Shown here: piece after piece, positions 23,501 to 37,072 of the stretch
Position numbering within the stretch: the stretch's first letter is position 1
How the letters are laid out: each line of letters starts with the position of its first letter
Sequence record: PZ445134.1
Length of the DNA stretch: 64,000 nt
Origin: a phage
Reading direction: 5' to 3' (one strand)
Notes under the pieces: model-generated
What the model was told of the DNA's origin: nothing
The model's database searches: none
What the model saw: the letters and a program-made list of their open reading frames with translations, nothing else
Program-made: the position numbers and the translations under genes

Positions 23501-24389
23501 AGTATTTGAAGCGGGTGACGAAACCGGATACCATTTCTATTCTCAGCGCGCTGCTGATAATAGAGTATCATTTAATATTAATGGAACACTTTATTCAACA
23601 GGTATTGTTTCTACAAATGGATTAAATGTTACAGGTGTTTCTACCTTTACCGGGCCTATTAGTGCTACAGGCGAAATTGTTTCTAGTTCTCCTATTGCAT
23701 TCAGAGCTATTAACGGTAACTATGGTGTTATGCTTTATAATGCTGGTAACAGTTCTTATATTGCATTAACTAACTCAGGTGACCAGACCGGGACGTTTAA
23801 TAACTTACGCCCGATCACGATTAACAATGCCACAGGATTAGTTCGTCTTGACAACGGCGTTCAAATCACAAGTGGTGCAACAATAACTACCGGTGGGTTA
23901 ACTGTAAATAACAGAATTATTTCTAACGGCGTTAAAACTGCCACTGTTTATACCGATAAACCAACAGCTTCTACTGTAGGTTTTTGGTCTATTGACATTA
24001 ACGATTCTGCTGTATATAGCCAATTCCCTGGATACTGGACGCGTGATAACAAAGGTAACCGTGACCAAGAAATTAAATATCCTGGTACTTTGACTCAATT
24101 TGGTAATAGCTTAGATTCGCTTTATCAGGATTGGATTTGTTATCCTACAGGTGCAAATGGTGGTAGTATTCGTTATACTCGTACCTGGCAGAAAAATAAA
24201 GATGCTTGGACTTCATTTGCAATGGTATTTGATAGTGGCAACCCACCTTCACCTAGCGATGTCGGTGCTATCCCATCTGATAATGCTGTTATTGGAAACC
24301 TTACTATTCGAGACTTCTTACAATTAGGAAATGTGAGAATTGTTCCGGACCCGGTTAACAAAACAGTTAAATTTATATGGGTTGAATAA
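20556..24389 (+). CDS. 34: long tail fibre proximal subunit gp34
   Basis: 1277 aa; first gene of the plus-strand late module; late promoter TATAAATA at 20514-20521 and AGAGGA SD. Confidence 0.93.
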   Translation: MVDIKRKFRAEDGLDAGGDKIVNVALADRTVGTDGVNVDFLVQENTVQNYDETRAYTKDFIVLYDNRFYQALSDIPAPAGPFSLAKWKATRTDAEWITVQGGDFQLSVGNSIAVDTSAGTDINFTLPQNPLDGDTVILSDIGGRVGYVKVQITAAAQSIVNFRGQQVRSVLMTHPKSKMVFIFSNRLWQMYVSDYERNAVTVTPAKPYQAQPNDFIIRHFTSAAPINITLPRNANNGDIINLVDLDKLNPLYHTIVKTYDDTTSIREAGVHVAEGRNTAEAFFVYDSANSLWRVWEGDQKSRLRIVRNDTDLRPNEEVLVFGTDNNTISTVNLTLPTDILSGDTVKISLNYMRKGQTVKIKAAEGDTIASSISLLQFPKRSEYPPDAQWVSVSELEFNGDTSYVPVLELSYIEDYSSETKYWVVQQNTVTVERVDASSNNTRARLGVIALASQEQANVDLENAPGKELAITPETLANRTATETRRGIARIATTAQVNQNTDFAFQDDLIISPKKLNERTATETRRGVAEVATQAETNAGTDDTTIITPKKLDARQGSEVLSGIVKYTSTTGTTAATIRGNAGTNVYNKAVDNLTISPKALDQYKATPTQQGAVILAIESEVIAGESQAGWANAVVTPETLHKKTSTDGRIGLIEIATQAETNTGTDYTRAVTPKTLNDRKATEGLSGIAEIATQVEFDTGTDDTRISSPLKIKTHFDSSDRTSVNSDSGLIEEGTLWNHYTLDISKANETQRGTLRVATQAESNAGTLDDVLITPKKLLGTKSTETSEGVIKVATQAETVTGTSANTAVSPKNLKWIVQSEPSWTATTAIRGFVKTSSGSITFVGDDTQGNTQDLNLYEKNSYAISPYELNRVLANYLPLKAKAADSNLLDGLDSLQFIRRDIDQTVNGSLSFTKQTNLSAPLVSTSTASFGSEASVTRRLTLNDSSGSEIIFTKGTQSLSNKENFVVRAWGNSATDGARDTVFEAGDETGYHFYSQRAADNRVSFNINGTLYSTGIVSTNGLNVTGVSTFTGPISATGEIVSSSPIAFRAINGNYGVMLYNAGNSSYIALTNSGDQTGTFNNLRPITINNATGLVRLDNGVQITSGATITTGGLTVNNRIISNGVKTATVYTDKPTASTVGFWSIDINDSAVYSQFPGYWTRDNKGNRDQEIKYPGTLTQFGNSLDSLYQDWICYPTGANGGSIRYTRTWQKNKDAWTSFAMVFDSGNPPSPSDVGAIPSDNAVIGNLTIRDFLQLGNVRIVPDPVNKTVKFIWVE

Positions 24390-26246: not shown

Positions 26247-29200
26247 ATGGCTACTTTAAAACAAATACAATTTAAAAGAAGCAAAACTGCAGGAGCACGT
26301 CCTGCTGCTTCAGTATTAGCCGAAGGTGAATTGGCTATAAACTTAAAAGACCGTGTACTTTTTACTAAAGATGACCAAGGAAATATTATTGATCTGGGTT
26401 TTGCTAAAGGTGGTAGTATTGACGGGAATGTTATTCATACTGGCAATTATAACCAAACTGGCGATTATACTTTAAATGGAACCTTCACTCAGACAGGTAA
26501 TTTTAATTTAACTGGTATTGCTCGAGTAACTCGCGATATTATTGCCGCCGGGCAGATTATGACCGAAGGCGGAGAACTTATTACAAAAAGTTCAGGTACA
26601 TCACATGTTCGTTTTTTCGATGGCAATAGCCGCGAACGTGGCATTATCTTTTCGCCAAATAATGCTGGAGCGACCACTCAGGTAGTTAATATTCGCGTAC
26701 AAGATTATGCCGCTGATAGCGAAAGCATTTATGCGTTTTCAGGCAACGGTGTATTTTCTTCACCTGAAGTATCGGCACGGAAATCTATTTCGTCTCCACA
26801 AATTCTGACCAATAAAGTTATTACAGATGGGAAGAAGACAGGCGATTATGATATCTATTCATTAGCAAATAACACTCCATTGGCAGAAAGCGAAACGGCT
26901 ATTAACCACCTCCGCGTTATGCGAAATGCCGTAGGATCTGGTATATTCCATGAAGTTAAAGATAACTACGGGATAACCTGGTACGCCGGTGACGGGTTAG
27001 ATGCCTATCTTTGGTCGTTTACCTGGTCCGGTGGATTGAAAGCAGGCCATTCTGTTTCTATAGGTCTTCCAGGTGGCTCTAAAGGATACTCTGAACTAGG
27101 GACTGCTTCGATTGCTCTTGGTGATAATGATACCGGATTTAAATGGCATCAGGACGGATATTTTCATACAGTAAACAACGGAACAAGAACTTTCGTTTAC
27201 GGTCCTGCGGAAACACAAAGCCTTAGAAAAATGGTTATGGGTTATTCTCCGGATGGGATTCTTATGACAACGCCACCGACAGAAAACTATGCATTAGCCA
27301 CTGTTGTTACTTACCATGATAATAACGCGTTTGGAGATGGTCAGACTCTTTTGGGATATTATCAAGGCGGTAACTATCATCATTATTTCCGCGGCAAGGG
27401 TACCACAAACATTAATACTCATGGCGGTTTGTTAGTTACTCCAGGTAATATTGATGTTATTGGCGGTTCTGTTAATATTGATGGTCGTAATAATGCTTCT
27501 ACGCTGATGTTTAGAGGTAACACAACTGGTAGCAGTTCAGTTGATAATATGACAATTTCTGTATGGGGTAATACGTTTACTAATCCTAGTGTAGGTAATC
27601 GTAAAAATGTCATGGAAATTTCTGACGCAACTAGCTGGATGAGTTATATTCAAAGACTTACTACCGGTGAAGTAGAAATGAACGTCAATGGTTCATTTGA
27701 ATCATCCGGTGTTACTGCTGGAAATAGAGGAGTTCACACAACAGGCGAAATTTCATCTGGAGCAGTTAATGCGCTTCGCATTTGGAATGCAGATTATGGA
27801 GCCATTTTTAGACGTTCAGAAGGCAGTCTTCATATTATTCCAACTGCTTACGGTGAAGGTAAACATGGCGATATCGGTCCACTTCGCCCGTTTAGTATGG
27901 CTTTAGATACTGGTAAAGTTACTATTCCAGATTTACAATCAAGTTACAATACGTTTGCTGCTAACGGTTATATTAAATTTGTTGGTCATGGAGCGGGTGC
28001 CGGCGGTTATGACATTCAATATGTTCAAGCAGCTCCTATTTTCCAGGAAATTGATGATGATGCTATAAGCAAATATTATCCTATTGTTAAACAGAAGTTT
28101 TTAAACGGCAAAGCTGTTTGGTCTTTAGGTACTGAAATTAATTCGGGTACATTCGTTATTCATCATCTGAAAGAAGATGGTTCACAAGGCCATACGTCTC
28201 GTTTTAATCAAGACGGTACTGTTAACTTCCCAGATAACGTTTCTGTCGGCGGTGGTGAAGCTACTATTGCTCGCAATGGTAATATCTGGTCTGATATCTG
28301 GAAAACGTTTACTTCAGCAGGCGACGTAACTAATATTCGCGATGCAATAGCTACTCGTGTTGCTAAAGAAGGCGATACGATGACCGGCACTCTTTGGATT
28401 AATAAAGATGCTGCCGGAATAGTTCTTAATCCTCCTTTGGCTAGTGATTCGTCATTTATTCGTTCTGATACGGCCGGGGCCAATAATTGGTATATTGGTA
28501 AAGGCGGTGCCGACAATGGTCTAGGTTTTTACAGTTACATTACACAAGGCGGTGTATACATAACAAATAACGGCGAAATATCGCTTTCTCCTCAAGGTCA
28601 AGGAACATTTAATTTTAATAGAGACCGCCTTCATATAAACGGTACACAATGGGTTGCGCATAAATCTGGCGCCTGGGGTGACCAATGGGGTTTAGAAGCT
28701 CCTATATTTGTAGATTTTGGATCCGTCAGCAATGACTGCTATTATCCTATTATTAAAGGAAAATCTGGTATTACTAACGAAGGATATTTTTCCGGCGTAG
28801 ATTTTGGTATGCGACGCATTACTAATAACTGGGCACAAGGTATTATTCGTGTAGGTAACCAGGAAAATGGCCATGACCCACAAGCTATATATGAATTCCA
28901 TCATAACGGCACTTTTTATTCTCCTAACATGGTTAAAACCGGCGCAAGACTATCAGCTGGTGGTGGTGACCCGGTATGGACTGGACCATGTCTTGTTATT
29001 GGTGATAATGACACTGGCTTAGTATGGGGTGGCGACGGTCGAATAAATATGGTTGCCAATGGTATACATATTGCAAACTGGGGAGCAGGCTATCAATCTC
29101 ATCCTGGGCTTTGGGATTCAACCGGCGCTTTTTGGACAGAAACTGGAAGAGCTATCGTTTCTCATGGGCATCTCGTTCAGGCAAATGATAGTTATTCAAC

Positions 29201-33219: not shown

Positions 33220-33852
33220 TCACAGTACGTTAGTTACAAGGGTAATGATTTCTTTGGACACATTAGGGAAGTCAATGTAAGTATATTTACCACCGATCTT
33301 AATCTTAACATCATTTTCAAGAGAAGTAAACAGCTTTGATTCAGTTTCTGACATGTTGTATGCAAAGATTCTAAGAGAACCATTTCGACGAATTTCGATC
33401 TGACGAATACCTAGAACTCGTTTTGCAAATCGAACTTCCAAGTTACTACGGTTTTCACCAATTTCTTTAACTTCAACTTTATCTTTAATATTTTCAAAAA
33501 CAAAGTTTGCTAGTTCATGCATTTCAGGAGTAACTCCACGTGCTTTTCTGGTGTTACGTTTCTGAAGAAGTTCTGGAGCATTTTCTTGGGCAAAGAGGTC
33601 TGCAGCTTTTTGGATAATATCCATTGCTTCGCCTGTTGCTATAAGTCCATCACCAGATTTTTCGACTAAACCTTTCTTAATCAATACACCAATGTTAGAG
33701 TTAACAACTGATGCATTGTATTCCGCTTCCAGAGCTTCACGGACATTGGCAGCAGTGGTGAAGTTGTTCTTAATGATATAAACCATTATTGCAGCAGTTT
33801 TTTCATTCAGAGCGTTTTCAGAAGCTTTGATGATGTAAGTAACTTTAGACAT
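33220..33852 (-). CDS. motA: middle transcription activator MotA
   Basis: 210 aa; matches recalled T4 MotA (MSKVTYIIKAS...NSNIGVLIKKGLVEKSGDGLI.TGEA...); early promoter 33890-33918. Confidence 0.9.
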   Translation of the reverse strand: MSKVTYIIKASENALNEKTAAIMVYIIKNNFTTAANVREALEAEYNASVVNSNIGVLIKKGLVEKSGDGLIATGEAMDIIQKAADLFAQENAPELLQKRNTRKARGVTPEMHELANFVFENIKDKVEVKEIGENRSNLEVRFAKRVLGIRQIEIRRNGSLRIFAYNMSETESKLFTSLENDVKIKIGGKYTYIDFPNVSKEIITLVTNVL

Positions 33853-33889
33853 TTTATTTCTCCAAATTAGTATTTGTTTTGATAGGTCT

Positions 33890-33918
33890 ATAATATCATG
33901 TTTGAAGCAAAAGTAAAC
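33890..33918 (-). promoter_or_regulatory. T4-type early promoter (motA)
   Basis: minus strand GTTTAC, 17 nt, TATTAT. Confidence 0.6.
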
Positions 33919-33955
33919 TTTATTTTGGGCTCTTTTTCAAAAGCCCTGGTAAAAT

Positions 33956-34171
33956 TTACAAACTCATTTCTTTAATAAGGCTAATAAGTTTTGCCTTTTT
34001 AGAACGAAGCTTTTCTAAATGATGTCCATTTGAACCACGAACCACTAAAGAATTGATTTCAACTTCTAAGAAATTTAATTCTTCAACAAGTGCTTTACGT
34101 GGAGCATTCATACCAGGTTTAACTTTACCAAAACGAGTAGTTGTGTTTTGGGTTAATTTCATTTTAGACAT
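33956..34171 (-). CDS. hypothetical basic protein, 71 aa
   Basis: Track ORF; own copy of the motA-type promoter at 34211-34239. Confidence 0.5.
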   Translation of the reverse strand: MSKMKLTQNTTTRFGKVKPGMNAPRKALVEELNFLEVEINSLVVRGSNGHHLEKLRSKKAKLISLIKEMSL

Positions 34172-34210
34172 TTTATTTCTCCAATTTGGTTGTTTTGTTT
34201 TGATAGGTCT

Positions 34211-34239
34211 ATAATATCATGTTTGAAGCACATGTAAAC
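34211..34239 (-). promoter_or_regulatory. T4-type early promoter (duplicate of motA promoter module)
   Basis: minus strand GTTTAC, 17 nt, TATTAT; about 38 nt identical to 33873-33910. Confidence 0.6.
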
Positions 34240-34265
34240 TGTTTTGTGAGAAAAAATGCACAAAA

Positions 34266-34283
34266 AGGAACCCGAAGGTTCCT
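34266..34283 (-). terminator. hairpin terminator
   Basis: AGGAACCCGAAGGTTCCT with U-runs on both sides. Confidence 0.5.
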
Positions 34284-34387
34284 TACTTTTTAAAGTGAGC
34301 TGCTATTAAACCTATAGCTAAGCCCGTTGCCAGGCCTAGGATAACAGCAAAGATACAGAGTAACAAGAACTCGACTCCAAGGCTCAT
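34283..34387 (-). CDS. hydrophobic micro-protein, 34 aa
   Basis: Manual translation MSLGVEFLLLCIFAVILGLATGLAIGLIAAHFKK; ATG overlaps gp52 stop (ATGA); hairpin 34266-34283 immediately after. Confidence 0.35.
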   Translation of the reverse strand: MSLGVEFLLLCIFAVILGLATGLAIGLIAAHFKK

Positions 34388-35709
34388 AGAGCCTCCAAGT
34401 CTTTAGTGTACTCTGTCACAACATCAGTAGACTTCCAATACTCATTTTCTTCTTTCTTAGCTTTAGCTTCTTCTGCCAGTTTACGCGCTTCGTCGGAAGT
34501 GATATGGAAGATGTTAAGGCCTACCAGTTTATCGACATGTTCTTTATACATTTCGATTTGTGCTAGCTCTTCAGTCAAAGCTTTACGAGTCTTGCCCTGA
34601 ATCACAATTTCACCGTTGATAACTTTTTTGATGAAGTGTGCCTTAGCAAAAGCAAGTTTAAATGCTTTTTCGGATTCAAGGATTTTGTTGTCAATACGTT
34701 TCTGAACGTAAGTCTTACGGACTTCAACAAAATCTTTGATTAAGTCCACTACGTTATCGTAGACAGCTAATTTACCCTTTTCATTAATCACTGTGATATT
34801 TTGTGAACGACGTTCGATGAGACTAAAATCTTTCATGATTTTTTCATGACGTAGCTCTTCATCATCAGGAAGCGAGTACTCTTTACGGAACTTCACTTTA
34901 AACCCAAAGCCGTGTTCACCACAATCATCTTCCCATGAGATTAGACCTTTGTCTTCCAATGGGTCAAGAACCTTACTCACATATGTTTCACGGTCGAATT
35001 TATATGGGATTTCAGTTATCTGCATTTGAGTGCGAGATGTGAACTTATATGTTCCGTGAATCTCATAACGTCCATCAACTTCATGTACTTCACCACGGAA
35101 TTCCGGGAATTCAACTTTTGGCTTAGTGACATTTTTACCTTGAAGAGCTTGTAATACAGCCTTTTTGACTGATTTAAAACTATGAGGCAGAATATTTGTT
35201 GCGTAACCGGTTGCAATACCAGAGACACCATTCAAAAGAACTGTTGGAATAATAGGAAGATAGAATTTTGGTGGAATGTGTTCTTTATCTTCATGAGCTG
35301 GAGCATATTCAGTATCTTTATATACGTTATAGAAATTTTTACTTACACGAGCAAAAATATAACGAGATGCTGCAGCTTTTTGGACTGTTCTAGAACCAAA
35401 GTTGCCTTGGCCATCTAACAGTGGATAGTTGTTGTTCCATGTGTTAGCCATCAATGCACCTGCATCTTGTGCAGAAGATTCACCATGGTGATAACCTAAA
35501 TCTGCAACACCGCCTGCAATTGACGCAAGTTTATGAAATTTTTCTTTATTACCACGAGCCAAATCTAACGCACGATGAACCACAAAACGTTGAACCGGCT
35601 TAAATCCATCAATCATGTTTGGGATTGCACGGTTTTCAACGGTGTACATCGCATATGCTAAGGCTTCGTTATCAATAATACTTTTTAGATTACGAGAATT
35701 CAATTCCAT
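34384..35709 (-). CDS. 52: DNA topoisomerase II medium subunit gp52
   Basis: 441 aa; matches recalled T4 gp52 (NRAIPNMIDGFKPVQRFV..RALDLARGNK.KFHKLASIAGGVADLGYHHGE). Confidence 0.93.
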   Translation of the reverse strand: MELNSRNLKSIIDNEALAYAMYTVENRAIPNMIDGFKPVQRFVVHRALDLARGNKEKFHKLASIAGGVADLGYHHGESSAQDAGALMANTWNNNYPLLDGQGNFGSRTVQKAAASRYIFARVSKNFYNVYKDTEYAPAHEDKEHIPPKFYLPIIPTVLLNGVSGIATGYATNILPHSFKSVKKAVLQALQGKNVTKPKVEFPEFRGEVHEVDGRYEIHGTYKFTSRTQMQITEIPYKFDRETYVSKVLDPLEDKGLISWEDDCGEHGFGFKVKFRKEYSLPDDEELRHEKIMKDFSLIERRSQNITVINEKGKLAVYDNVVDLIKDFVEVRKTYVQKRIDNKILESEKAFKLAFAKAHFIKKVINGEIVIQGKTRKALTEELAQIEMYKEHVDKLVGLNIFHITSDEARKLAEEAKAKKEENEYWKSTDVVTEYTKDLEAL

Positions 35710-35713
35710 AATT

Positions 35714-35854
35714 TTACCATACTAGTGAATGAATAGCCATAATAACATCGGAAATAAAAAGCACAACTTGAATTATCCCGAACATTACTCCATAATACAG
35801 CGCTACCAATAAAGCAGCAAGGGCTAACGAGTAGCCCAAGATTTTATTAATCAT
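35714..35854 (-). CDS. hydrophobic micro-protein, 46 aa
   Basis: ATG 35854 (MINKILGYSLALAALLVALYYGV...) overlaps the stop of the upstream 53-aa ORF; track version starts at a TTG at 35902. Confidence 0.35.
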   Translation of the reverse strand: MINKILGYSLALAALLVALYYGVMFGIIQVVLFISDVIMAIHSLVW

Positions 35855-36008
35855 TTTTAATCGTCTTAAGTAAACCGACAAAAGTAGAAAGAACCCAACC
35901 AATAAGCAGAAAACTTAAGAATATCGGACCAGGGGCCCACACACCTAAAAAGAAGCAAACCGAACAGACTATAGCCGTAATAAGTTCAATAAAAACTACG
36001 ATAATCAT
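35847..36008 (-). CDS. hydrophobic micro-protein, 53 aa (ac/stp position)
   Basis: Manual translation MIIVVFIELITAIVCSVCFFLGVWAPGPIFLSFLLIGWVLSTFVGLLKTIKND; GAGGAAA SD. Confidence 0.4.
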   Translation of the reverse strand: MIIVVFIELITAIVCSVCFFLGVWAPGPIFLSFLLIGWVLSTFVGLLKTIKND

Positions 36009-36094
36009 ATTTTCCTCATTAGCGTCCGAAGACGCCTTTAGTTTTAAGATTGTTACGATAGAACTGCATCACATGTTCGTTATGGAAATACTCA

Positions 36095-36541
36095 TTAGTA
36101 AGCCTGCAGGATGAATTTAAAGTTATCAGCCAACATACGGTTCATTTCAGTGAGTGTTTGATATTCTGATGTATGATTGCGAGTGAATGCCAGAGCCAAT
36201 TGACCTTTACCATAACCAGTGGTCAGCGGTTTCATGTTCTTAGCTGCAACAAAGATTACATCGTATTCAATATTGTTAGTGCCCATAGTACGGGCTAGTT
36301 GCGAACGACCTTGACGAATGTGAGAAAGAATTGCATCCAACCCTTGTTTAGAACGTTGACGTCCTACAAAGAATCGTGCTGCTACTTGTCGCCAATCAGA
36401 TGAACCTTTAACAAAGAAGTAAAAACCTTCACGAGAACGAAACTCTTTAGAAACTTCAGAACCGTATTCGCCATTACGAACTACTGCAACAACTTCACCA
36501 CCAACTGCCAGAAGGTCTTTACGAGTTAAATATTTAGACAT
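36095..36541 (-). CDS. ndd: nucleoid disruption protein Ndd (probable)
   Basis: 148 aa (T4 Ndd 151 aa); map position between 52 and denB; GAGGAA SD; promoter 36586-36615. Confidence 0.6.
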
Positions 36542-36585: not shown

Positions 36586-36615
36586 ATTATACTCTGCTCT
36601 CAAGAGTTTGTACAA
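36586..36615 (-). promoter_or_regulatory. T4-type early promoter (ndd)
   Basis: minus strand TTGTAC, 18 nt, TATAAT. Confidence 0.5.
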
Positions 36616-36878: not shown

Positions 36879-36989
36879 TTAAATTACATTAAAATATGTT
36901 AAAGCCAACCATGTTCCAGTGAACGAACATGCGATGTAAAAACCCGTATCGCAAATTGTTCTTAGTACAATAAGAAGTGCATTTTTCAT
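36879..36989 (-). CDS. hydrophobic micro-protein, 36 aa
   Basis: Manual translation MKNALLIVLRTICDTGFYIACSFTGTWLALTYFNVI; ATG overlaps stop of the upstream 28-aa ORF. Confidence 0.3.
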   Translation of the reverse strand: MKNALLIVLRTICDTGFYIACSFTGTWLALTYFNVI

Positions 36990-37072
36990 AAGTACCTCAA
37001 TACAATTGAAAATATTATACAAATCATAGGGATACTAAGCAACCATATTCCGATCCACATTTTAGAACTCAT
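36986..37072 (-). CDS. hydrophobic micro-protein, 28 aa
   Basis: Manual translation MSSKMWIGIWLLSIPMICIIFSIVLRYL; ATG overlaps stop of the 87-aa gene (ATGA). Confidence 0.3.
   Translation of the reverse strand: MSSKMWIGIWLLSIPMICIIFSIVLRYL

Follow-up and report, generated by a model that had tools for sequence, protein, structure and literature searches.

Gene 52 of the phage analysed here is flanked by three small hydrophobic genes, orf53, orf46 and orf34, which by profile comparison are members of phage families already catalogued in related phages. The window (the whole 64 000-nucleotide stretch of sequence record PZ445134.1) contains the interval that in T4 reads ndd-stp-ac-52.1-52-motA.1, in agreement with the original prediction that this was the ac/stp region. 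The three genes are probably genuine accessory genes for inner-membrane micro-proteins, belonging to the early ndd-to-gene-52 unit of a T-even-type phage, coupled to one another and exchangeable between phages. Coupled, exchangeable accessory micro-genes are ordinary for T-even phages. The annotation of the interval is corrected accordingly: it carries 52.1, a non-Ac gene in the ac slot, a non-MotA.1 gene trailing gene 52, and an inactivated stp.

Gene order, junctions and the setting of gene 52

The minus-strand order orf53, orf46, gene 52, orf34 was read from the sequence, with an 8-nt overlap between orf53 and orf46, a 4-nt gap between orf46 and gene 52, and an ATGA overlap between gene 52 and orf34 (table 1). 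The final 8 nt of orf53, ATGATTAA, include the ATG of orf46, and orf53 is preceded by GAGGA, the sole strong Shine–Dalgarno sequence from the ndd stop to the gene 52 start; a 53-aa frame with a Shine–Dalgarno sequence, overlapping the start of a 46-aa frame, was thus confirmed. The orf46 frame is without a Shine–Dalgarno sequence of its own and stops 4 nt ahead of the gene 52 ATG, and the 22 nt upstream of gene 52 (cattcactagtatggtaaaatt) contain no strong one. The 34-aa frame does begin on the gp52 stop codon, as had been noticed: its ATG overlaps the TGA, and GGAGG lies 4 nt upstream, within the 3′ end of gene 52. Transcription signals were predicted from consensus sequences. A promoter-like site before ndd is a candidate start of an ndd-to-orf34 transcription unit, and a terminator was predicted directly after orf34.

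Table 1. Features of the ndd-to-orf71 interval and the evidence for each.
Feature	Coordinates	Strand	Evidence
Sigma-70/T4-early-type promoter-like site (TGTACA-17-TATAAT)	36586..36614	-	consensus scan, 10/12 matches
ndd (nucleoid disruption protein), 148 aa	36095..36541	-	PHROG 1102, E=2.9e-57
stp remnant	36019..36095	-	alignment with RPN187, QL01-like and IME341-like loci
orf53, 53 aa	35847..36008	-	PHROG 9347, E=3.7e-26
orf46, gp52.1 orthologue	35714..35854	-	Pfam PF24129, E=1.6e-21; PHROG 3595
Gene 52, DNA topoisomerase II medium subunit, 441 aa	34384..35709	-	PHROG 551, E=4e-217
orf34, 34 aa	34283..34387	-	PHROG 16377, E=2.3e-21
Predicted intrinsic terminator hairpin	34265..34284	-	terminator scan: 8-bp stem, 4 GC pairs
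Predicted early promoter (TTTACA-16-TATTAT with TG)	34211..34238	-	promoter scan
orf71, 71 aa, non-hydrophobic	33956..34171	-	PHROG 6200, E=2.8e-40

Translational coupling of orf53, 52.1, gene 52 and orf34 was inferred from junction geometry only. Ribosomes would load at the orf53 Shine–Dalgarno sequence and pass by termination–reinitiation into 52.1 and on to gene 52, and translation of orf34 would be coupled to termination at the gene 52 stop, aided by its own GGAGG. Synthesis of gp52 is then predicted to require the ribosome-binding site of orf53. The geometry, together with the hydrophobicity described below, supports the view of these frames as coupled membrane micro-protein genes.

In relatives, the 52.1 stop was always found 4–5 nt before the gene 52 ATG. 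With 52.1 present, nothing better than TGGTAA or TGGTGA was seen upstream of gene 52, and without it AGGAG, GGAGA or GAGGA was seen; by this comparison, gene 52 is without a strong Shine–Dalgarno sequence wherever 52.1 is present. A hydrophobic ORF overlapped the gene 52 stop in 29 of 40 T4-like loci, the other 11 having no trailing ORF. These trailing ORFs fell into at least six unrelated types (PHROG 3487, 16377 and 13762, and 26-, 23- and 77-aa types without a PHROG); position and hydrophobicity are therefore conserved in this slot, and sequence is not.

The same pattern might mean that the micro-genes mainly serve gene 52, as coupled membrane cistrons inserted co-translationally on either side of it, setting gp52 translation levels and holding the polysome, and with it the nascent topoisomerase subunit, at the inner membrane by transertion or tethering. 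Such a role would account for the frequency and the unrelated origins of the trailing hydrophobic ORF, and for 52.1 being the most conserved of the micro-genes, with gene 52 lacking a Shine–Dalgarno sequence in its presence. It would also fit the membrane association of T4 gp39 and gp52 reported from old fractionation studies, for which a literature search on gp52 membrane association gave no usable source. We nevertheless consider it unlikely, since the amino-acid constraint on orf34 (pN/pS of 0.06) exceeds the needs of a generic anchor, the trailing ORF is missing from 11 of the 40 loci, and T4 sa-delta-9, which is without 52.1, is viable. Moreover, gp52 in the window is of Mosigvirus type and the peptides on either side of it are of Dhakavirus type, so that gp52 was not co-inherited with its neighbours. 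It is likewise quite unlikely that gene 52 has been placed on purpose within a coupled membrane-cistron chain (orf53, 52.1, gene 52, orf34) acting as a 'transertion anchor', a design in which synthesis of the topoisomerase subunit, and perhaps its retention, would take place at the inner membrane. If true, this could account for early observations that T4 replication and topoisomerase proteins are membrane-associated. The pattern itself, a coupled hydrophobic ORF of any family at the gene 52 stop in most T4-like phages together with loss of the gene 52 Shine–Dalgarno sequence after 52.1, would, provided that it is functional and not the result of a permissive insertion slot, bear more widely on how phages organise their replication at the membrane.

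Identity of the small genes

The two frames upstream of gene 52 had been proposed as analogues of ac and stp. This did not hold: the 46-aa frame corresponds to gp52.1, a gene that the original prediction had not assigned to this site, and the 53-aa frame lies in the ac slot and belongs to another family. The orf46 protein matched Pfam DUF7396 (PF24129) over its full length (1–46) at 76.6 bits, with a gathering score of 27 bits as cut-off, and matched the PHROG 3595 profile with E=2.5e-25. The motif VLFISD.IM..SL.W, invariant in the gp52.1 family alignment, is present in orf46 immediately upstream of gene 52. By these matches orf46 is the orthologue of T4 gp52.1, and not Stp. Its N-terminal hydrophobic half is variable and its C-terminal half (QVVLFISD.IM..SL.W) almost invariant; the AF2 model of gp52.1 is a single continuous helix of 44 residues (2–45, pLDDT 96.5), not a hairpin. 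The 5′ half of 52.1 was imported with a cassette, which makes the sequence closer to the T4/Dhakavirus-type 52.1 than to the allele of HX01-type Mosigviruses (72% identical). A PDB sequence search with the 52.1 profile gave no match. Searches for function in Pfam, NCBIfam and PADLOC returned DUF7396 only, no homologue of known function was found for any of the three proteins, and in the literature 52.1 and motA.1 were found only in the context of the sa-delta-9 deletion.

Neither orf53 nor orf46 could be taken as Stp, no similarity being found in PHROG profile comparison. As judged by alignment, what is left of the real stp lies between ndd and orf53; codon 3 of this remnant has lost one nucleotide (AGTAATTTCC to AGTATTTCC). 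Its frame stops after 8 codons (MSISITNM), the homologous Stp gene having 25–26 aa; the overlap of its ATG with the ndd stop (TAATG) is retained, and there is no ORF of at least 20 aa at 36019–36095. The deletion was absent from all 385 matching phage records in which it was sought (best match 99.0% with one gap), and it may therefore be a sequencing error. On the sequence as it stands, activation of PrrC by this phage is not expected. The original prediction took Stp to be non-hydrophobic, which is borne out by its GRAVY of -1.03.

The orf34 protein matched PHROG 16377 along the entire profile (1–34 of 34). With hydrophobic residues at approximately 7–30 and a C-terminal HFKK, it is probably a single-pass membrane protein. 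It was 100% identical in 40 phage records, probably all of JS98/JS10/IME08-like phages (Dhakavirus), only some of which were locus-confirmed. Homology to MotA.1 was rejected (hhalign probability 1.2%, with PHROG 16377 as the only match), and the relation between the two is one of positional analogy only.

The orf53 protein matched the PHROG 9347 profile over residues 1–53, and was 100% identical in RPN187 and 83–98% identical in Dhakavirus. A word-index protein search gave three near-identical clusters, and a HMMER search of 1.84 billion representatives gave two true relatives only (52 and 54 aa). Two long repetitive proteins also matched, almost certainly through composition alone, and the family is thus a narrow one, confined to phages. 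In the AF2 model (pLDDT 79), helices at 2–21 and 28–52 are joined by the turn G22-V-W24-A-P26-G, and a two-helix transmembrane hairpin is predicted. F6, G22, W24 and P26 are invariant in the family alignment, giving a conserved G-x-W-x-P turn. A Foldseek search with the orf53 model found no match. Homology to a 57-aa family located between ndd and stp in Dhakavirus was rejected (hhalign probability 0.4%).

No Ac homologue was found in the window, and the phage is therefore predicted to be acridine-insensitive, unless orf53 substitutes; no acriflavine sensitisation through Ac is expected. As such a substitute, orf53 would be a non-homologous functional replacement of Ac and would cause acridines to build up in infected cells, for example through a block of AcrAB-TolC, on which T4 Ac is proposed to act (bioRxiv 10.1101/2025.06.30.662393). 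Consistent with this, orf53 lies where ac lies in T4 and HX01-type Mosigviruses, from ndd/stp to 52.1, and both genes share the 8-nt ATGATTAA overlap with 52.1, and therefore a C-terminal -ND. Both proteins have 51–53 aa and two apparent hydrophobic segments, those of orf53 being seen in the AF2 model. Against this, neither sequence nor profile similarity links the two: hhalign gave a probability of 0.2%, and orf53 matched only PHROG 9347, not PHROG 2501, the profile matched by Ac of T4, HX01 and JS98. Nor is orf53 the sole occupant of the ac slot, as positional orthology would have it, since in JS98-like loci (L010, L032) a true Ac homologue (PHROG 2501, E=3.9e-20) lies beside orf53, between stp on one side and orf53 and 52.1 on the other. 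Enterobacter-phage-type loci carry orf53 together with a further small hydrophobic ORF. Coexistence with an Ac homologue or a second hydrophobic ORF counts against redundancy, and replacement of Ac by orf53 is regarded as improbable.

Selection and exchange of the micro-genes

The strong hydrophobicity first noticed in the small ORFs was confirmed as extreme among those of the window. GRAVY values were 1.77, 1.77 and 1.79 (the last for orf34), compared with a mean of 0.21 (sd 0.63) for 212 ATG-ORFs of 30–80 aa in the six frames of the window; five of these 212 exceeded 1.5, and orf34, orf46 and orf53 were three of the five. For orf34, pN/pS was 0.06 in frame versus 0.85 and 5.1 out of frame, with 4, 0 and 10 variable sites at the three codon positions. 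For 52.1 the values were 0.31 in frame and approximately 1 out of frame, and for orf53 dN/dS was approximately 0.16–0.22 against Enterobacter-phage-type alleles, with dS saturated. Lack of conservation of the frames in relatives had been named as what would refute the original prediction, and the frames are conserved. As judged from these ratios, purifying selection acts on all three genes, and their end-to-end PHROG profile matches range from E=2e-21 to E=4e-26. That the ORFs are non-functional chance frames or relics in AT-rich inter- or intragenic DNA is thus highly improbable and effectively refuted by the dN/dS and pN/pS results: the ORFs are very short, orf34 is unannotated in many records (several matches show the topoisomerase gene only) and hydrophobic frames arise readily from T-rich sequence, but selection is specific to the reading frame, lengths, starts and junctions are kept across genera, PHROG and Pfam profile families already exist, and the hydrophobicity is a statistical outlier.

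The flanking genes are of Mosigvirus type: ndd showed 96% nucleotide identity to HX01 and RPN187 and 70% to Dhakavirus, gene 52 showed 97–99% to HX01-type phages and 72–81% to Dhakavirus, and motA is also Mosigvirus-type. The two micro-gene cassettes are approximately 97–99% Dhakavirus-type. On these identities, the micro-genes entered a Mosigvirus-like genome as two short Dhakavirus-type cassettes, and the locus provides a clean example of micro-gene cassettes of approximately 120 and 380 nt swapped between phage genera around an essential gene.

The predicted terminator hairpin (AAGGAACC-TTCG-GGTTCCTT, followed by TTTGTGCATTTTTT) has a stem reaching into the orf34 stop codon, of which it takes up the final two bases, and, in the alignment, was exchanged along with orf34. 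The equivalent site in phage ATK47 is annotated as a Rho-independent terminator, and an Rfam scan of both strands of the region gave no RNA family. Terminator and early promoter together form a predicted PeSL-like promoter/stem-loop cassette. PeSL shuffling cassettes of T4-type phages (Arbiol et al. 2010, PMC2839356; Comeau et al. 2014, PMC4122927) are defined as a stem-loop followed by an early promoter TTTACW-N17-TAYWAT, beside genes varying among close relatives (PMC4122927). These parts were all found in the window, with a spacer of 16 nt versus 17 in the published consensus, and polymorphism is seen in the neighbouring orf71 slot as well as in orf34. An approximately 86-nt PeSL-like near-repeat (34163–34248 and 33844–33927), inferred from cross-matches to HX01 (88%), bounds the orf71 slot between gene 52 and motA, its second copy preceding motA. 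HX01 and JS98 have orf71; RPN187 and two further loci (L005, L031) do not, and unrelated orf73 or orf75 take its place in other loci. The high turnover of micro-genes may be driven by recombination at short conserved junctions, namely the ndd 3′ end, the conserved core of 52.1, the Shine–Dalgarno/ATGA region at the end of gene 52 and the terminator/early-promoter (PeSL) element.

Proposed function and comparison with known systems

As accessory membrane micro-proteins, the three peptides would enter the inner membrane of the host a few minutes into the infection and modulate host envelope proteins there, in a dispensable and strain-specific manner. The candidates for such a target are efflux or permeability (compare Ac on AcrAB-TolC), phospholipid synthesis (compare T4 sa-delta-9, a deletion running from 52.1 as far as denB) and exclusion or defence factors bound to the membrane; these are extrapolated from the non-homologous neighbour Ac and from a multi-gene deletion. 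The sa-delta-9 deletion removes 52.1, ac, stp and ndd to denB; the phage is viable with a 50% yield, and stimulation of phosphatidylglycerol synthesis is lost (PMC6071114). This viability and a natural orf53/52.1 fusion-deletion in one locus (L036) both point to an accessory nature.

The closest known counterpart is T4 gp52.1 (NP_049876; DUF7396/PHROG 3595), which shares 43 of 46 residues with orf46, is of equal length and, like it, overlaps the preceding gene by 8 nt and is separated by 4 nt from gene 52, which follows directly; no substantive difference was seen. T4 Stp (PHROG 6763) is a 26-aa hydrophilic activator of PrrC and inhibitor of type Ic restriction. The window copy is approximately 99% nucleotide-identical to Dhakavirus and T4 stp, but it is frameshifted at codon 3 and has lost the conserved N-terminal 18 residues, which are needed for activity (PMC3014915). 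T4 Ac (NP_049877) and orf53 share slot, similar size and hydrophobicity, and the 52.1 overlap, but belong to PHROG 2501 and PHROG 9347, respectively, and coexist in JS98-like phages. T4 MotA.1 (NP_049874; PHROG 3487) resembles orf34 in position, ATGA overlap with the gene 52 stop, hydrophobicity and location upstream of a terminator and the motA promoter; it differs in length (49 versus 34 aa), and there is no PHROG cross-match.

The window element resembles PeSL cassettes in that a terminator stem-loop followed by an early promoter recurs on either side of the orf71 slot, which is variable, and in going with gene presence, absence and replacement among close relatives. The swaps themselves differ in having junctions within coding sequence: the upstream junction for orf34 lies inside the gene 52 3′ end (Shine–Dalgarno/stop region), and those of the stp-orf53 swap lie in the ndd 3′ end and within 52.1. 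E. coli AcrZ, a 49-aa protein that binds AcrB, is one of the small membrane proteins that regulate transporters, and it illustrates a way in which the micro-proteins might work, not a family to which they belong. For T4 Ac, too, binding to larger membrane proteins has been proposed as the mode of action. AcrZ-like regulators have no sequence relationship to the micro-proteins described here and are of host and not phage origin, but they share with them the size class, transmembrane helices and a likely binding to larger membrane proteins.

Coding evidence for the micro-genes around gene 52

The window belongs to a T-even-type myovirus, and every gene of interest in the interval is carried on the minus strand. 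A nucleotide search with 2.8 kb around the micro-genes matched 815 phage records, none covering >88% of the query; the closest were from Mosigvirus (RPN187, 97.7%; SF, APCEc01 and HX01, ~97%). The T4 reference order is ndd, stp (26 aa), ac (51 aa), 52.1 (46 aa), gene 52, motA.1 (49 aa) and motA.

Features of the interval, in transcription order, followed by other micro-ORFs and the exchanged segments
Feature	Position	Strand	Remarks
ndd	36541-36095	-	first in transcription order
stp remnant	36019-36095	-	in the 86-nt 'gap' between ndd and orf53
orf53	36008-35847	-
orf46 (52.1)	35854-35714	-
gene 52	35709-34384	-
orf34	34387-34283	-
hairpin	34284-34265	-	after orf34; followed by early promoter
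near-repeat, first copy	34163-34248	-	~86 nt; early promoter and 5' leader; just downstream of terminator hairpin
orf71	34171-33956	-	between promoter copies
near-repeat, second copy	33844-33927	-	~86 nt; early promoter and 5' leader
motA	33852-33220	-	preceded by second promoter copy
micro-ORF upstream of ndd	36986-37072	-	hydrophobic
micro-ORF upstream of ndd	36879-36989	-	hydrophobic
small ATG-ORF	26371-26475	+	34 aa, GRAVY 2.18
small ATG-ORF	23626-23769	+	47 aa, GRAVY 2.0
upstream cassette	35786-36095		310-380 nt; Dhakavirus type
downstream cassette	34262-34383		~120 nt; Dhakavirus type

The junctions of the original prediction were confirmed. Orf34 begins with an ATG that shares bases with the TGA of gene 52 (ATGA) and has GGAGG 4 nt upstream, and orf53, preceded by a strong SD (GAGGA), contains the orf46 start within its final 8 nt (ATGATTAA). 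The claimed hydrophobicity was borne out by GRAVY scores of 1.77-1.79; 212 ATG-ORFs of 30-80 aa were scored in six frames of the window, and these three were among the five above 1.5. The other two lie on the plus strand (see table).

When checked in relatives, all three frames were conserved, as judged by pN/pS, omega and PHROG (phage protein family) profiles. For orf34, seven distinct nucleotide alleles yielded a pN/pS of 0.06 in frame, compared with 0.85 and 5.1 out of frame, with variable sites distributed 4/0/10 by codon position; for 52.1, it was 0.31 in frame and ~1 in the others (sixteen alleles). Against Enterobacter-phage-type alleles, orf53 gave an omega of ~0.16-0.22 (dN 0.34-0.44, dS saturated). 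End-to-end PHROG matches were obtained for orf34 (16377), orf46 (3595) and orf53 (9347), with E from 2e-21 to 4e-26. All three are protein-coding genes, with products predicted to be hydrophobic and helical. They are members of known, catalogued families and their novelty is low; identical proteins occur in other phage records, where orf34 is often unannotated.

Identity of the micro-genes and of the ndd-orf53 gap

The upstream pair had been proposed as possible analogues of ac and stp. Orf53 does lie in the ac slot but is not Ac, and the second ORF is the orthologue of T4 gp52.1. Orf46 is identical to T4 gp52.1 at 43/46 residues, matches Pfam DUF7396 at 76.6 bits (cut-off 27) and, as in T4, is separated from gene 52 by 4 nt and overlaps the gene ahead of it by 8 nt; its counterpart in ATK47 was already annotated as 'gp52.1 predicted membrane protein'. 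Alignment between lineages showed a variable N-terminal hydrophobic half and an almost invariant C-terminal half (QVVLFISD.IM..SL.W), and the predicted structure (AF2) was a single continuous helix (2-45, pLDDT 96.5). The 52.1 of RPN187 has a changed C-terminus (…AIPFTSMVKLWN) reading into gene 52, the result of a frameshift or of an error in sequencing. At another T4-like locus (L036), orf53 continues into the final residues of the 52.1 region as a 70-aa ORF, apparently through a natural deletion that removed most of 52.1.

Orf53 was assigned to PHROG 9347, Ac of T4, HX01 and JS98 all to PHROG 2501, and profile-profile comparison of ten orf53-family with twelve Ac-family sequences gave a probability of 0.2%. 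The assignment of orf53 as an occupant of the ac slot distinct from Ac was decided by two JS98-like genomes (L010, L032), in which stp is followed directly by an Ac homologue, then orf53, then 52.1. The C-terminal -ND common to Ac and orf53 is due to overlap with the conserved 52.1 start. The orf53 family is narrow: matches were found in Dhakavirus, some Enterobacter/Klebsiella/Serratia T4-likes, RPN187 and the window, with only two further cluster representatives among 1.84 billion proteins. F6, G22, W24 and P26 are invariant in the family alignment, and E8 and the C15-x-x-C18 pair are retained in most members. A two-helix hairpin is predicted by AF2 (helices 2-21 and 28-52 linked by a GVWAPG turn, pLDDT 79), and its basic C-terminus (KTIKND) would place both ends in the cytoplasm. 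Two long proteins were hit many times over by the orf53 query: P0004 (2587 aa; E=6e-29) in 36 stretches and P0007 (426 aa) in 6. In both, the similarity almost certainly reflects hydrophobic repeats, not homology.

Orf34 occupies the motA.1 slot yet is unrelated to MotA.1 (PHROG 16377 versus 3487; hhalign probability 1.2%). It has a single hydrophobic stretch and a C-terminal HFKK. Versions with 94-100% identity were found in 55 phage records that are Dhakavirus by name, only some being confirmed by locus.

The sequence that separates ndd from orf53 is stp. Every base of it has a match in the stp of RPN187 and of the Dhakavirus loci, but one A of codon 3 is missing, and its frame stops after 8 codons (MSISITNM-stop). 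The functional part of Stp is residues 1-18, with most suppressor mutations at residues 4-14 (PMC3014915); since the frameshift hits this part, the window copy should be null. An in-frame ATG (Stp residue 10) overlaps the remnant's stop (ATGTGATG), so that a 16-aa truncated product via reinitiation is conceivable. The deletion was absent from all 385 matching phage records; it is peculiar to this isolate, or else an error of sequencing. In HX01-type Mosigviruses stp is wholly absent. Many Dhakavirus and other T4-like loci (e.g. L010, L011, L042) carry between ndd and stp a 57-59-aa hydrophobic ORF (PHROG 5941; conserved ...ERL/ERI... motif) that is not present in the window. Further hydrophobic micro-ORFs lie upstream of ndd, where a 28-aa ORF (MSSKMWIGIWLLSIPMICIIFSIVLRYL) resembles T4 Ndd.6 (MSSLWWCFVWLISIPVICLTFTFVMRLL) by eye and an overlapping 36-aa ORF is a hypothetical protein in the HX01 annotation.

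Proposed coupling to gene 52 and possible role

Among 40 T4-like loci, which are phylogenetically non-independent, 29 had a hydrophobic ORF beginning at the stop codon of gene 52 or shortly ahead of it. These trailing ORFs were of at least six unrelated types: MotA.1 (49 aa, PHROG 3487), orf34 (PHROG 16377), 45-46 aa (PHROG 13762), Mosigvirus 26-aa TTG, 23 aa and 77 aa. Upstream, wherever a 52.1 homologue was present, its stop preceded the ATG of gene 52 by 4-11 nt (start codon choice ambiguous in six loci), and 52.1 always overlapped the preceding gene, never with an SD of its own. The 22 nt upstream of gene 52 contained only TGGTAA or TGGTGA in loci with 52.1, and AGGAG, GGAGA or GAGGA in loci without it; no recognisable SD preceded gene 52 where 52.1 ended 4-5 nt ahead of it. 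TGG, the codon for the invariant Trp at the C-terminus of 52.1, could act together with the TAA or TAGG after it as a weak SD.

An early transcript would begin at a promoter-like site ahead of ndd and end at the terminator that follows orf34; ribosomes entering at the SD of orf53 would reinitiate at 52.1 and then gene 52, translation of orf34 would be coupled to the gene 52 end, and the micro-peptides would enter the inner membrane early in infection. With moderate confidence, we regard them as accessory modulators of host envelope proteins, because the strong family-specific amino-acid constraint speaks for specific partners, because the micro-genes are dispensable and readily swapped, a common trait of host-interaction genes, because an action on AcrAB-TolC has been proposed for the neighbouring Ac (bioRxiv 10.1101/2025.06.30.662393), and because the T4 sa-delta-9 deletion (52.1 to denB) is viable yet loses phage-induced stimulation of phosphatidylglycerol synthesis (PMC6071114). 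The main rival holds that the micro-ORFs serve gene 52, setting its translation and keeping its synthesis at the membrane. Conservation of position without that of sequence favours such a service, but the trailing ORF is missing in 11 loci, gp52 recombines freely with foreign flanking peptides in the window, and constraint within families is strong. Of most value here are the revised gene identities, the remnant of stp, the mosaic of two micro-cassettes and the pattern of coupling at gene 52.

Exchange of cassettes between phages

Identity of window segments to two phage groups
Segment	HX01-type Mosigvirus	Dhakavirus
ndd	96%	70%
stp remnant, orf53, 52.1	orf53 and 52.1 5' half essentially unalignable; 52.1 3' half 81-84%	93-99%
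gene 52	97-99%	72-81%
orf34, terminator stem	essentially unalignable	97-98%
promoter, orf71, motA	98-100%	73-87%, alignable in part only

Two cassettes, 93-99% identical to JS98/QL01-like phages, have been exchanged between phages. The upstream one is limited by the ndd stop and ~codon 18 of 52.1 and is 100% common to RPN187; the downstream one, not in RPN187, starts directly after GGAGGC (gene 52 last codons) and ends in a T-run past the hairpin. Their combination around a Mosigvirus-type gene 52 was found in no record of the phage collection. HX01-type phages differ from the window in that a 26-aa hydrophobic ORF, with its TTG start on the gene 52 stop (TTGA), replaces orf34.

In close relatives the slot holds orf71, is empty or is filled by the unrelated orf73/orf75, owing to PeSL-like repeats on both sides. 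The hairpin and the TTTACA-16-TATTAT promoter, which recurs ahead of motA, agree with the promoter/stem-loop (PeSL) shuffling element described for T4-type phages (PMC4122927).
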